DNA of 19,576 nucleotides from Escherichia coli. GTDB lineage: Bacteria > Pseudomonadota > Gammaproteobacteria > Enterobacterales > Enterobacteriaceae. A program made the position numbers and the translations under genes. The notes below the pieces were generated by a model. That model made no database searches, was not told where the DNA came from, and saw only the letters and a list, made by a program, of their open reading frames with translations. Location: the NCBI RefSeq assembly GCF_003334765.1, contig NZ_QOWT01000051.1. The stretch is one strand, 5' to 3'. Of the stretch, positions 8,483 to 16,268 are shown one piece after another; the first letter of the stretch is position 1, and every line of letters begins with the position of its first letter.

Positions 8483-9340
8483 TCAGGGGGAAGCTGTGGC
8501 CAGCCGGCTGTAATTGCGGTTACGCGACAGAATCATGCGCTCCTTCACACGACGCTCCACTTCACGTTTTACCGCCTCACGACTGGCAGTGAAGCGCCCT
8601 TCCGAGATTTCACGCGTCAGCTGTCGTTTCACCAGGGTGACGATATCCTGACGTTCCCTGCCCGCATCACGACGCGCACGGGCACGCTTTATTCCCCGGG
8701 ACTTAAGCTCTGTCTGGTAACTGCGGAAACGCTCACGCACAAAACGCCAGGCTTTCGCTATCAGTTCATCCATACCCAGGGTATCCAGCCCCTGCTTTTT
8801 GCGCTGTTTGTTTTCCCATACCACACGGCTGCGGCGCGCAGCTGCCACTGCATCCTCAGACACATCAAGGGCGGCAAACAGCGCCAGTGTGAACGTGATA
8901 TCGGTCGGAATGTAGCACCCGATAAGCGGGTCATATTCCGTCTGGTAGGTAATCAGTCCCAGCTCTGACAGGGACGTCAGGGCCCGGGTGGCCCGGGTGA
9001 TGGAGAGTTTTCCTGCACCGGACTCTGTCGCCAGTCCGCACTCAATGGCCAGCGTGGTGATGGAACACTGGACGCGGTTGGCCAGCGGGTCATAATGGAA
9101 ACACAGCCCCTGCAGCAGCGCATCAATAGCCCGTCGACGCAGCACCGGTGGCATGCGTCGACGCAGACCACGCGAACGGGCATGCGCCACATGAATAGCG
9201 AAATCAAAACGGGAGCTGAAGCCCACCGCTTTTTCCATCAGTTTTTCGCAGAACTTCAGCGTTCCGGCACCTTCACGGGGTGTGAACACCGGATTCGGGT
9301 TCTTTACCTGGCGGTAATACGTTTGGTGAAGATCAGTCAC
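8483..9340 (-). CDS. repA1: IncFII replication initiator RepA1
   Basis: Near-identical to the recalled R100/R1 RepA1 ([40 protein letters not shown]...[12 protein letters not shown]). The likely start is the GTG giving MTDLHQ (285 aa); the track ORF 8483..9352 begins four codons earlier. Confidence 0.95.
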
Positions 9341-11535: not shown

Positions 11536-12096
11536 TTATTTCTCATCAAGCACGGCCTGAAGTTCTGCCTTTATCCGGTTCTGGCGGCGGATTTTATCCA
11601 GACGCGCTGCGGCATACGCTTCCTCCTCCTGAGAAATATGCTCCGTCACATACCCTTCCGTGTCATACCGGCAGGCACCGGCTTTCATGGCACACAGATA
11701 GCTTTCTGAACGGGTGATGGCCTTCAGCGCCCTGCGCAGTTTTTTATGCGAGAGCGGGATATTCCGCTGCGCCACGTCTTCCAGTAACACGTCCCGGATA
11801 CCGCAGGCCAGAAGCCGGGGCGTGTCACCGTCAAACAATCCCGGCCACCAGGGTTTCAGGGTATTCACGGCCTCATCCAGCGTGGGCAGGTTCAGATAAA
11901 TGGACAGTGCCTGTCTGGCCTGCGCTTTTTTTGCCGCCAGCTCTGCTTCCCGGGCTGCTTTCTCGGCCAGCTTCTGCTTTTTCACCTTCCACTTTGGTGG
12001 CGTGGTGACATTGATGATGGTTTTCCGGCTGCGGACAGGCGTCTCCCCTTCCGTTTTCCGCTTCAGTGTCAGTACCGGTCGCTTCTGCTCTGTCAT
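11536..12096 (-). CDS. finO: Fertility inhibition protein FinO (ProQ/FinO-family RNA chaperone)
   Basis: 186-aa ORF essentially identical to recalled F/R100 FinO ([50 protein letters not shown]...). Confidence 0.95.
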
Positions 12097-12150: not shown

Positions 12151-12500
12151 TCACAGCGCCAGAACGCCCAGCACAGCCAGATGACAGGCGTAGAATACCG
12201 GGAAAAAATCCCCGGGCCAGAAACGGGGTAATGATTTTCCTGCACACGACACCAGACCAACGGTCAGCACCGTCATCAAAAGACCAGCCACCGCCGCTGC
12301 ATCACTGGTGGCAAGGTTAAGCGCCGGAATAACAGCCAGCAGGCAGGCGACCAGCGCCAGACGTTCCGCTCTGTCTTCCGCCCGGTACAGCCGGTGGCTG
12401 ACTGCCAGCATCAGCAGCCCGGCAATGCCGTAACTGGTGCCGGACAAGGGCCCCCACAGGGCCATCAGAAGAATGGCCGCTGCTGTACGCCACCCGGTCT
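12151..12500 (-). pseudogene. traX: traX 3' fragment (pilin acetylase), 5' part deleted
   Basis: Encodes GWRTAAAILLMALWGPLSGTSYGIAGLLMLAVSHRLYRAEDRAERLAL...FYACHLAVLGVLAL, matching the C-terminal 115 or so residues of F TraX. The frame is entered without a start codon at about 12498, where it abuts the traI fragment. Confidence 0.85.
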
Positions 12501-12951
12501 ATCACATAGCGGTCATGACTGCGTGTCTCCGGGTTCCACTGCTCCATCACCATCCCCGGACGGTACATATCCCGCAGATAACGGCTCCGGCTGTCCAGCC
12601 AGACCGGTGACAGTGCAGTCATGGTCACCTCAGGGTGTCCGAGCACGCCCTGCGTTTTCAGCTCACTGCGAATGGCCTGTGTCAGTATGGCCTGTTCCCG
12701 TACCCCGCTGACCTGTGCCACGCTCTCTTCTCCGGCTTTCACGCTGGCCGCAAAATCTCCGGCCAGCCGGGCATAGCGGACATTACGGTCCGGTTCACTG
12801 ATGATGGTGGCCGGTCGCTGTTCTCCCCCCTGCCAGCGATATGTGTTCACCCCGGCATCCTTCATGGCCATCAGCGCACTGCCTGTACCGGTTCGCTGCC
12901 CGCTGTCGGTTATCAGGACCTGTACGTTATGACGTGCGGCACCATCCAGCC
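12501..12951 (-). pseudogene. traI: Internal fragment of relaxase/helicase gene traI
   Basis: In-frame segment ARHNVQVLITDSGQRTGTGSALMAMKDAGVNTYRWQGGEQRPATIISEPDRNVRYARLAGDFAASVKAGEESVAQVSGVREQAILTQAIRSELKTQGVLGHPEVTMTALSPVWLDSRSRYLRDMYRPGMVMEQWNPETRSHDRYVIDRV matches recalled F TraI. Both flanks of track ORF 12317..13129 are out-of-frame read-through. No relaxase N-terminus and no oriT. Confidence 0.7.
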
Positions 12952-13280
12952 GGAATGATGCCACGCTCTGCCAGCATGTTGAGTGCTGCCAGTCGGCGAC
13001 CACCTGCGGCGACACCGTAACGGTCACCAGGCAGGGTATGCACGACCAGATTCTGCAACAGGCCAACGCCCTTAATGGACTCCGCCAGTTCGCTGACGGA
13101 CTCTGCGGAATACGGCACCGTGCGCACATTCAGCGGTGATTTAATCAGTGAAGCCAGCGGCACACTCACTTCCTCCGTCTGCGCCAGCAGGGCAGACAGG
13201 ACTGTTTCCTGCGTTTTTACAGATTTAAGGCTTGCTTTGCGGGTGGTTTCTGGTTCACACTTCGTTACAGGCATAATCAT
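12952..13280 (-). pseudogene. 5' fragment of a ParB-like nuclease-domain gene (F leading region)
   Basis: Track ORF 12927..13280: ParB/Srx-type N-terminal domain (GLLQNLVVHTLPGDRYGVAAGGRRLAALNMLAERGIIPA), then non-homologous residues and a stop right at the junction with the traI fragment. Full-length homologs are much longer. Confidence 0.6.
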
Positions 13281-13332
13281 CCCCTTATAATTGCTTATGT
13301 CCTGCCGGACGTTCGCGCGTCCGGCACCTCTC

Positions 13333-13593
13333 TTACTTAAGAATCCCGAAATCCCTGATGTACCGGTTCATCCAGTACCCGGCACAGTCCTCAAAATTCC
13401 AGGAGCGCCAGATCAACGTGCCATCCTGACGGGCAACCAGGCGAAAATGCGTTCCCTGATCATCCTCGATAAAGACATTCCGGTACTGTGCGGCAACGGC
13501 TTCAGCCTGTTCGCGGGTAAAGGAGCCGTCAGGCAGCCCCTGAAATATTCTGAAATATTCGCTCATCCTCATCTCTCCGGTGATGCCCCGCAC
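13333..13593 (-). CDS. Conserved small leading-region protein, function unknown
   Basis: 86-aa ORF ([86 protein letters not shown]) between the ssb remnant and the ParB-like fragment; no recognisable catalytic motif. Confidence 0.5.
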
Positions 13594-13621
13594 TGGACGG
13601 GGCGGTTGTCACTGTCTTAGT

Positions 13622-13885
13622 TCAGAACGGAATGTCGTCATCGAAGTCATACGCGGGTTCAGACGGCTGCTGAGGCTCCGGCTGCGCGGCCTTACGTCCA
13701 CGGCCTTTCGTTTTCGCGCCACCTTTTTTCGTCGCGTCAGCACTCTGTGGCTGCCCATTCTGCTGAGGCTTCGGTTGCGCCTGAGCGTTCTGCTGTGGTG
13801 CACTCCCCAGCATCTGCATGGTGCCCGTGGTCTTAACAAGAATTTCAGTGACGTAACGGGTGATACCGTTATCTTCCCAACTACG
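13622..13885 (-). pseudogene. ssb: ssb 3' remnant (plasmid SSB C-terminal region with acidic tail)
   Basis: Track ORF 13622..13924: from about residue 14 it matches the end of the SSB OB-fold and linker ([27 protein letters not shown]...) and ends with the hallmark tail DFDDDIPF. The first 13 residues are not SSB-like and the upstream 270 nt an SSB N-terminus would need are occupied by the methyltransferase gene. Confidence 0.7.
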
Positions 13886-13923
13886 GGCAGACGGGCATTT
13901 ATCCTCCCGCCAGCCCTGTGTCA

Positions 13924-14487
13924 TCAGGCACGCAGACGAATAATCATCGTCGGGACATCGGTATAAGCAAACGTGCCGCGCGGCAGCTCCTCGCGGACGT
14001 CAGAAAACGGTAACAGCTTCTCCTGCTGGCGCGGCCCGTTCAGACAGACGGCAACCAGCACGCCACCCGGACGCAACAGGGAAAAAGCCCGCAGGATATG
14101 CCGGATATCCTGCCCGTGACTGAACGGCGGATTCATGATAACCCGGCTGTAATACTGCACCGGCTGCCATTCCATGAAGTCGCCACACTGAACCCTGACA
14201 CCGTTAAAATTTTCCCGCAGATACCGGACCAGCCCGCTGTTAATCTCCACCGCATCACACATGGCCTCCGGCGCGGTATCCCGAATCGCCCGCAGTATGG
14301 CCCCGGTGCCGGCAGAGGGTTCCAGAATGTGATCACGGTTGCTGATTTCCGCCAGCGTCACCAGGCGATCACAGACCGGGGCAGGAGTCACAAAAAGCTG
14401 AGATTCAGCCCGGATTTCAGCAACCGGCGCGACGTTATCCAGCCTTGCACGCATCAGCCGGATACGTTCTCTTAACTGACTGTGCAT
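13924..14487 (-). CDS. Small class I SAM-dependent methyltransferase (leading-region orphan MTase, amino-MTase NPPF motif)
   Basis: 187-aa ORF with SAM-binding motif [12 protein letters not shown] and catalytic-type motif IMNPPFSHG; its stop overlaps the start of the ssb-remnant ORF. Substrate (DNA vs RNA) cannot be decided from sequence alone. Confidence 0.7.
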
Positions 14488-14533
14488 GTCATTATCTCCG
14501 TCATCCCCCGGGGATTTCCCGGGGGGATATACC

Positions 14534-15895
14534 TTATTTCTGTGGGATTTCCGTGATTTTCATGTCGGTAATATACACATTCACCAGGCGGAAATTATTG
14601 TCCATTGTGCGGCGGTAGCGGTATGCCCCGTGGTCTTCTGTCTCTGCCACACTGCGCACGGCCTTACAGTCCCGGGGCAGGGCGGCCCACTGCGCCTTTG
14701 TCATTTCCCGGAAACCTTCCCCCGGATAGTTGACTACCGGCGGACGCTTCGCGGCCTGACTGGCGACGGCAGCCTCTTCTGCCGATGGTGCTTTGTAGTC
14801 CGTGATGCGATCGGGCGTCACTTTCATCGTGCCGCTGTACCCGAGAAAACTGTAATTCGGCGTTGTGACTGAACTCACCGCCCCGTTGCTTTTGTTCACG
14901 CGGATGATGGTCAGCCACTCGCCCCGGCTGAAAACCTGTCCGCCCGGCTCAAAATCCTGTGTCCGGGTAACCACGCCGCCGCTTTCGTCCAGCATGGCAC
15001 GCTCATAGATCAGGCGGTTCTGATAGTGGTTAACCCAGCGTTGCTGATGCTGAATCTGCCGTTCATGACAGCGGATCGCAATTTCGCGGGCCTGCTCCGT
15101 GGTGATGATGTCATCATCCAGGGCCGACCATAACGATCGACTTCCTTCATACTGGCTTTTTTCTGCCGGGCGCGGATACGTATCCAGCGGGAAACAGGCG
15201 CTGATATGGTCATGACTGCTGATGAGTTTTGCCATATTCAGATCCAGCGATTCAGCCCGCCACATCGTCAGATATTTCTGCGACTGCGCGATGGTCTTTT
15301 CAGCCTTGCGCAAATCAGCTTCGATTTTTTTGATACGACGCCAGCGAACGTCCGGGCGTTCTTTATACTTCGCGTGAAGCAGTGCCGACCGCGCCCGCTC
15401 CTCCCAGTATTCCGCACGTTCAAAGAGCATCACGGCACGTTTCATGCCGTTTTCAATACGCTGCGCATCACGACGGGCGCGGCGTTCGCTGTGATGCCCC
15501 ACAAGAATGGGCTGACCGGGCGGGATCATCGCGGCCAGTCTTTCCACTTCATCAAGTGCCTGTGCGGATTCACTGGCCCGCTTTCCGCTGTATCCGGTAA
15601 ACCGCTCCGCCCGTGCTTCCTGACGTTCAGCGAGCGTGCTGTCTTCATCCTCAATCTCTCCGGCAAGTGAGAGGAGCACGTCTTCCCGGCCCGGTGTCCA
15701 GGCTGGCGCGACAAACAGCGCCTGTTTGGGTGCCCAGCGAAAACCGGCATCATGCACTTTTTTATACGTCTCCGGGTCAAGACGTGACGCGGCATACAGG
15801 CGCAGTTTGTTGTCATCCGGTGAGTAGGTCGCGCGGTACATCTGCACAGGGCTGGCGGCTTCCGGGGCGGTCATGGTGATTGCTGCTAATGTCAT
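14534..15895 (-). CDS. Large conserved leading-region protein of unknown function
   Basis: 453-aa ORF, no transmembrane or catalytic motif recognisable by eye, charged and possibly coiled-coil central region. Position and orientation match conserved large ORFs of IncF leading regions; family not assigned. Confidence 0.55.
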   Translation of the reverse strand: MTLAAITMTAPEAASPVQMYRATYSPDDNKLRLYAASRLDPETYKKVHDAGFRWAPKQALFVAPAWTPGREDVLLSLAGEIEDEDSTLAERQEARAERFTGYSGKRASESAQALDEVERLAAMIPPGQPILVGHHSERRARRDAQRIENGMKRAVMLFERAEYWEERARSALLHAKYKERPDVRWRRIKKIEADLRKAEKTIAQSQKYLTMWRAESLDLNMAKLISSHDHISACFPLDTYPRPAEKSQYEGSRSLWSALDDDIITTEQAREIAIRCHERQIQHQQRWVNHYQNRLIYERAMLDESGGVVTRTQDFEPGGQVFSRGEWLTIIRVNKSNGAVSSVTTPNYSFLGYSGTMKVTPDRITDYKAPSAEEAAVASQAAKRPPVVNYPGEGFREMTKAQWAALPRDCKAVRSVAETEDHGAYRYRRTMDNNFRLVNVYITDMKITEIPQK

Positions 15896-15946
15896 AAAAT
15901 GTTCTCCTTCCGTCTGTTGCCGCCCCTCGCGGGGCGGCTCACCTCA

Positions 15947-16177
15947 TCAGTTAAAAGCGCGTTTCAGTTCGAGTGTGCGGAGCACCTGCCCGAAGGCCGT
16001 GTTTTTCATGGCGGGGATGTGTACACCACGCCCCCGGTGAAAACTCCGGGCTATGTGTCGCCCGAAGGCTTTCAGCACGGGGTCAATTTCCGGCGCGGGG
16101 ATGTCTTCGCGTCTGAAACGGGGATGACGGCGGGGCTTTACAGCCGCTGCGGAAGGTGAAACAATGCTTACAGTCAT
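15947..16177 (-). CDS. Hypothetical small basic protein
   Basis: 76-aa ORF upstream of the 453-aa gene on the same strand, overlapped by an 86-aa plus-strand ORF (15899..16159); coding status uncertain. Confidence 0.25.
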   Translation of the reverse strand: MTVSIVSPSAAAVKPRRHPRFRREDIPAPEIDPVLKAFGRHIARSFHRGRGVHIPAMKNTAFGQVLRTLELKRAFN

Positions 16178-16239
16178 AAATGGATTCCTTATGACAGTTT
16201 GGTAACAGTGCCTTAAAGACTGGTTGCACAGTCTCTTCG

Positions 16240-16268
16240 GCGTGGATTAAGCAGGTCCCTGACCTGCT
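16240..16268 (+). terminator. Terminator-like hairpin
   Basis: GCAGGTC-cct-GACCTGC followed by TTTTTTC on the plus strand. Confidence 0.3.

Follow-up and report, generated by a model that had tools for sequence, protein, structure and literature searches.

[quoted passage not shown] This question is raised by the minus strand at 13622-13924 of the window, i.e., the whole stretch of Escherichia coli DNA that was analyzed (19,576 nucleotides), where the program-made list of open reading frames (ORFs) holds an ATG-to-stop ORF of 100 codons. The original prediction described it as an ssb gene reduced to linker and acidic tail behind a 13-residue non-SSB N-terminus, more probably a deletion scar than a decoy for SSB-interacting proteins. 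The ORF is a fusion, and its parts and immediate neighbors are arranged as follows.

13622-13924, minus strand: fusion ORF, consisting of 13 codons of a hypothetical ORF, ssb codons 87-173 and a stop codon (ORF list and comparison with the intact plasmid pE1246_1)
13886-13924, minus strand: codons 1-13, the native start of a 76-residue hypothetical ORF, WP_127904487.1 (intact plasmids)
13625-13885, minus strand: ssb codons 87-173, encoding the end of the OB fold (about 27 residues), the disordered linker and the acidic tip (tblastn, NCBIfam and PDB alignment)
13625-13648, minus strand: acidic tip DFDDDIPF at the C-terminus (SSB-Ct), the motif on which SSB-interacting proteins dock (translation; PMC3594151)
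13924-14487, minus strand: intact gene for a class I SAM-dependent methyltransferase of 187 residues, directly upstream
13333-13566, minus strand: intact DUF905 gene (yfjA of F), directly downstream (named after PMC9849209 and the F annotation)

The ATG of the fusion ORF (13924-13922) has its A in common with the TGA of the methyltransferase gene, giving TGATG, so that the predicted overlap between the new N-terminus and the upstream stop codon is indeed present. Both parent sequences encode the arginine at position 14, SSB proper begins at residue 87 of 173, and fusion residues 14-100 correspond to SSB residues 87-173, which comprise the hairpin that ends the DNA-binding fold, then the disordered linker and then the DFDDDIPF tip. 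In an alignment to solved E. coli-type SSBs from the PDB, the retained C-terminal part of the OB fold (RSWEDNG...TMQMLG, about 27 residues) matches their residues 87-114, and the tip is identical to the E. coli-type tip; the ORF thereby has both the linker and the DDDIPF ending of an SSB tail. Translation, NCBIfam and tblastn all agree with the proposal that the ORF is distal SSB including the acidic tail. The further proposal that nothing but linker and tail was kept is correct for these two parts, but not in its ‘nothing but’, given the OB-fold residues that precede them. A protein of exactly these 100 residues has been deposited as CAM3803322.1 under the name ‘Single-stranded DNA-binding protein’.

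The 13 N-terminal residues are non-SSB, as had been stated, but they are the start of an annotated hypothetical ORF of intact plasmids, in which WP_127904487.1 shows the same TGATG overlap with the methyltransferase stop codon. This ORF crosses a trinucleotide repeat that codes for a run of leucines (3830-3900 of the pE1246_1 region, L001), and the repeat is deleted from the window. The length of the leucine run differs among plasmids (P0001 versus P0009), and the 90%-identity cluster to which the 76-residue ORF belongs is heterogeneous, with methyltransferase fragments among its members. The hypothetical ORF is probably non-coding, as the variable run suggests a simple repeat rather than a conserved protein. 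The methyltransferase upstream of it differs by a single amino acid from WP_001403466.1 of pE1246_1.

Against PRK13732, the NCBIfam model of plasmid SSB (175 positions), fusion residues 13-100 align to positions 86-175 with E = 2.2e-45. At 154.7 bits the alignment does not reach the cut-off for full length (265), and the score against the general SSB model TIGR00621 (34.9) is below its cut-off of 53.95. When the SSB of an intact plasmid was compared by tblastn with the whole window, only residues 87-173 were found, at 13885-13625 and with 100% identity; SSB residues 1-86, or any other 5' part of ssb, are present nowhere in the window. The fusion ORF does not encode the complete N-terminal OB fold (about residues 1-112) required of a PF00436-type SSB, as 86 of the roughly 112 residues of this DNA-binding, tetramerizing fold are gone. 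In E. coli SSB, residues 1-86 hold the ssDNA-contacting equivalents of Trp40, Trp54 and Phe60, together with oligomer interfaces. Because of this loss, the fusion product would be expected neither to bind ssDNA nor to form tetramers, and would thus be unable to work as an SSB. A single-sequence AlphaFold model of the fusion showed no confident fold (pLDDT 59.5, pTM 0.22), which is weak evidence by itself. Restoration of a full-length ssb by correction of a single base was considered as well and is ruled out, codons 1-86 being absent from the whole window by tblastn.

We further analyzed the locus by comparison with pE1246_1 (NZ_CP025574.1), the best match in PLSDB to window 13300-14600, as the reference intact plasmid. 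Alignment of the window to 50 kb of this plasmid gave a map of three deletions.

13884-13887, no strand: deletion junction 1, with microhomology CCCG (4 bp, as read on the minus strand) and 1,092 bp missing (comparison with pE1246_1)
12947-12953, no strand: deletion junction 2, with exact microhomology GCTG, 6/7 bases matching, and about 34.95 kb missing
12491-12495, no strand: deletion junction 3, with microhomology GGGTG and about 3.68 kb missing (the 3' part of traI and the 5' part of traX)
12927-13274, minus strand: truncated ParB-like gene (N-terminus of yfjB, 115 residues of about 650), cut by junction 2

Over window 13300-14600, pE1246_1 is 99.9% identical, but in two pieces that together span 2,393 bp as compared to 1,301. 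Base by base, the methyltransferase side agrees up to position 3717 of the pE1246_1 region and the ssb side from position 4806, and the flanks of junction 1 are 100% (941/941) and 99.96% identical. CCCG is present in both parental flanks. The breakpoint alignment that had been suggested as a check thus places codon 13 of the hypothetical ORF against ssb codon 87, with both breakpoints in unique sequence outside the Frpo-like repeats of this region (see below). An intact orthologue stands at the same place in a near-identical plasmid and a defined segment of it is missing here, as in a pseudogene. Relative to this intact plasmid, 1,092 bp have been cleanly lost at a microhomology of 4 bp, which upholds the earlier preference for a deletion scar. 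The length lost is 3 x 364, and since it is a multiple of three and the frames on the two sides match, the 100-codon ORF reads through the junction in frame, an outcome with a 1-in-3 chance. The anatomy of the junction suggests a single RecA-independent, microhomology-mediated deletion, e.g., by replication slippage, which would have joined codon 13 of the ORF that follows the methyltransferase gene to codon 87 of ssb.

When PLSDB was searched with this part of the window (13300-14600), at least 5,000 F-like plasmids matched, and 3,138 of the 5,000 best-scoring records contain 80% or more of the 1,301 query bases. Among the records listed with both halves, these are always separate and span about 2.3-2.5 kb compared to 1.3 kb here, with a methyltransferase-ssb distance about 1.0-1.2 kb greater than in the window; in intact F-like plasmids in PLSDB the two genes do not abut, which was the second check that had been proposed. 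The junction itself was searched for with three queries: no record covered 80% of a 151-base query in one piece among 72,556 PLSDB plasmids, none covered 80% of a 211-base query in one piece among 5,426 complete E. coli genomes, and an exact junction 28-mer had no match in JGI metagenome contigs. In a collection of 15 billion proteins, the exact 100-residue protein was found on seven near-identical contigs of one plasmid lineage; the carriers are the NCBI assembly GCA_965137835.1, the Logan assemblies ERR271232, ERR14335420 and SRR25039416, and a small number of other samples. One gene order is common to the three loci that are long enough to show it, namely DUF3560, methyltransferase, fusion ORF, DUF905, truncated ParB gene and a TraI or TraX remnant, and at the two longest carrier loci FinO and IncFII repA are visible too. 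Four carrier loci are 99.8-100% identical to the window, and the only three mismatches fall in the last 13 bases of the shortest contig (L005), outside the ORF. With contigs this close to identical, the lineage is too young for a signal of selection on the ORF. The junction has been seen in independent sequencing samples and is located in unique sequence outside repeats; it is therefore real, and belongs to one recent clonal plasmid lineage. Such a sporadic, one-lineage distribution, rather than conservation, is that of a gene remnant.

The 1,092-bp piece that was lost contains the rest of the hypothetical ORF, a homologue of Frpo2, the ribosome-binding site of ssb and ssb codons 1-86. The strong ssb Shine-Dalgarno sequence AGGAGA (about 4539-4544 of the pE1246_1 region) is inside it. 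In F, positions 362-1086 (of 1,088) of the deleted segment match the sequence directly upstream of ssb plus the 5' part of ssbF at 94%, and a further region (L007, 11563-12012), just ahead of hypothetical and DUF932 genes, at 90.5%. The genes upstream of ssb in classical F are different ones (DNA methylase, DUF1380 and antirestriction genes), but there too about 480 bp of intergenic sequence comes before ssb, and it is this sequence that the deleted segment matches at 94%. About 440 bp of the segment is repeated elsewhere in the leading region, and the core repeat (439 nt), when folded as ssDNA, forms a long hairpin of -139 kcal/mol (z = -12.7 relative to shuffles). The region upstream of F ssb is the Frpo2 of Couturier et al. 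(PMC9849209), with Frpo1 as the second kind of region; both are single-stranded promoters that act on the incoming strand, and deletion of Frpo2 abolishes early ssb expression (PMC9849209). By the 1,092-bp deletion, most of ssb and all of its own expression signals have thus been removed. The intact relative has three Frpo-like copies (L006, about 3750-4220, 7099-7537 and 12391-12858) that are 84-96% identical. The only Frpo-like element that now lies ahead of the fusion ORF is the following.

16407-16874, minus strand: Frpo-like repeat (single-strand promoter) that has been retained upstream of the hypothetical-DUF3560-methyltransferase block

With the F region upstream of ssb this repeat shares 93% identity, and with the deleted copy 90.7%; its ssDNA fold reaches -136 kcal/mol (z = -9.8). 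Further out, at about 16975-19502 of the window, IS66-family sequence (tnpA, tnpB and a truncated transposase) adjoins the leading-region block, an arrangement shared with pE1246_1; the last 75 or so bases of the window no longer match that plasmid.

Junction 1 had been counted as a third rearrangement in the leading region, and there are indeed two more microhomology deletions in the same block. Junction 2 joins codon 110 or so of the ParB-like yfjB to the middle of traI, with loss of the rest of yfjB, psiB, psiA, hok, oriT, traM-traD and the 5' part of traI. Junction 3 joins a 463-bp internal traI fragment (12491-12953) to the 3' part of traX, and FinO downstream (11536-12096, minus strand) is intact. 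The retained flanks of the three deletions are 99.1-100% identical to the intact plasmid, hence these deletions are recent. The plasmid still has an IncFII replicon, hok, FinO, a ParE-type toxin and cargo genes, and it cannot transfer or be mobilized via an oriT of its own. Beside the IncFII replicon, window 1-8522 holds cargo that includes cytochrome bd oxidase subunits, a PLP-dependent aminotransferase-family protein, a 3'-5' exonuclease (RNase T family) and a RelE/ParE toxin; it is 98.9% identical to CP057477.1, a plasmid from cattle feces, and a plasmid-borne cyd operon is an unusual cargo.

The sequence ahead of the fusion ORF bears on whether it is expressed. When the printed sequence was read by eye, no Shine-Dalgarno-like sequence was found in the 35 bases before the ATG, and no sigma-70-like promoter was found on the coding strand over 12800-17100. 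The retained Frpo-like element needs transferred ssDNA, and a plasmid without oriT and tra cannot become incoming ssDNA, so that this element would stay idle. For these reasons, expression of the fusion ORF is improbable. The loss of the original signals (the Frpo2 homologue and the ssb Shine-Dalgarno sequence), with no new Shine-Dalgarno sequence or sigma-70 site, is again a property of a gene remnant. A terminator-like hairpin followed by a T-run, recognized by consensus match only, is located at 14091-14113 (minus strand) inside the methyltransferase coding sequence; as this stretch is 99.96% aligned, the hairpin is probably also in the intact relative, and should it be functional, still less transcription would reach the ssb remnant.

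Taken together, we hold with high confidence that the ORF is a non-functional remnant of a plasmid ssb gene, left by a deletion in a decayed, non-transferable F-like (IncFII) plasmid. The deletion at junction 1 took place in an IncFII plasmid that two further microhomology deletions have deprived of oriT, psiB, psiA and nearly all tra genes. Leading-region genes do their work in the recipient just after transfer; because this plasmid can no longer transfer, they would be under no selection here and would be free to decay. Some features of the locus point the other way, namely the intact in-frame ORF, the perfect SSB-Ct tip, the one Frpo-like element still upstream (16407-16874), and the start/stop overlap with an intact upstream gene, which can allow translational re-initiation.

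Apart from the Frpo-like element, these features are what would support a working product. The ORF could share a transcript with the DUF3560-methyltransferase block, and termination-reinitiation at TGATG could give a low level of translation, so that a tail-only peptide would titrate SSB-interacting proteins; we judge such expression improbable by a wide margin, and we give as little credence to its suggested consequence, in which a monomeric, mostly disordered peptide ending in DFDDDIPF competes against host SSB for ExoI, RecQ, PriA and RecG. The frame is intact, its start overlaps the methyltransferase stop codon and its SSB-Ct is perfect. The SSB-Ct by itself docks onto partner proteins, and small molecules that compete with it inhibit bacterial growth (PMC3594151; PMC10164576). 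However, the ATG has no Shine-Dalgarno sequence before it, and both Frpo2 and the ssb ribosome-binding site have been deleted. The Frpo-like element that remains is active only on incoming ssDNA (PMC9849209), in a plasmid that has neither oriT nor tra, and in vegetative donor cells leading-region proteins are below detection (PMC9849209). The N-terminus comes from an ORF whose variable leucine run, derived from trinucleotide repeats, looks non-coding, and the junction is confined to one clonal lineage, with no independent recurrence in PLSDB, E. coli genomes or JGI metagenomes. A monomeric peptide would also be without the tetravalent, DNA-bound tails of SSB, and a small disordered peptide of this kind would be likely to be degraded. 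A search of the literature gave no report of a natural tail-only SSB or of truncated plasmid ssb genes. If the peptide were expressed, it would be a natural SSB-tail competitor, and of wider interest.

Two other explanations would remove the fusion altogether, or make it ordinary. One is that the real plasmid has an intact ssb and that the junction arose in sequencing or assembly, e.g., by collapse between Frpo-like copies, and three Frpo-like repeats (84-96% identical) and a trinucleotide repeat can confuse short-read assemblers. The breakpoints, however, are in unique sequence outside these repeats, and at least four different sequencing samples, with assemblies from two sources (NCBI and Logan), all show this junction, which leaves this explanation very little room. 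The other, that a short SSB-tail gene following the methyltransferase gene is the normal arrangement of a plasmid subfamily, is suggested by the tidy overlap of start and stop codons and by nothing more. With the two halves separate in the listed PLSDB records and no one-piece match to the junction in PLSDB or in the E. coli genomes, it has next to no probability left and is already refuted within the collections searched. An overlap of methyltransferase and ssb as the usual state of intact plasmids is thereby ruled out, on the PLSDB and complete E. coli genome searches.

A deletion remnant of ssb, as preferred here, is of a kind already known: an unremarkable scar left by gene decay, which very probably does not work as a gene. 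Its value is as a base-level record of one F-like plasmid lineage losing leading-region functions, in which ssb and its single-strand promoter were lost after, or along with, the loss of oriT and tra. This fits the view that leading-region genes such as ssb, psiB and yfjB are of use only while the plasmid is entering a new host. For annotation, CAM3803322.1 is best flagged as a truncated remnant, since its deposited name over-states what is a 100-residue ORF.

The closest known system is the plasmid SSB of F-like plasmids (ssbF or ssf; PRK13732; WP_000290849.1 in pE1246_1), whose residues 87-173 are 100% identical to fusion residues 14-100. The two have in common a lysine/arginine-rich linker of plasmid type, the DFDDDIPF tip and an orthologous gene position, directly before DUF905 (yfjA). 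Unlike the ssb of F-like plasmids, the fusion ORF is without residues 1-86, a ribosome-binding site of its own and the Frpo2 promoter, and its scores do not reach the family cut-offs. With synthetic SSB-Ct peptides and their small-molecule mimics it shares the DDDIPF ending; these are laboratory reagents that compete with the binding of SSB to its partners, whereas the fusion is a natural ORF with a putative product. The locus as a whole compares best with decayed, non-conjugative F-like plasmids, which likewise show several deletions at microhomologies of 4-5 bp, have lost oriT and tra, and keep ParB-like, TraI and TraX remnants beside an intact FinO and an IncFII replicon. Relative to these plasmids, the sole distinction of the present one is a junction that happens to be in frame and that keeps a recognizable protein-interaction motif.
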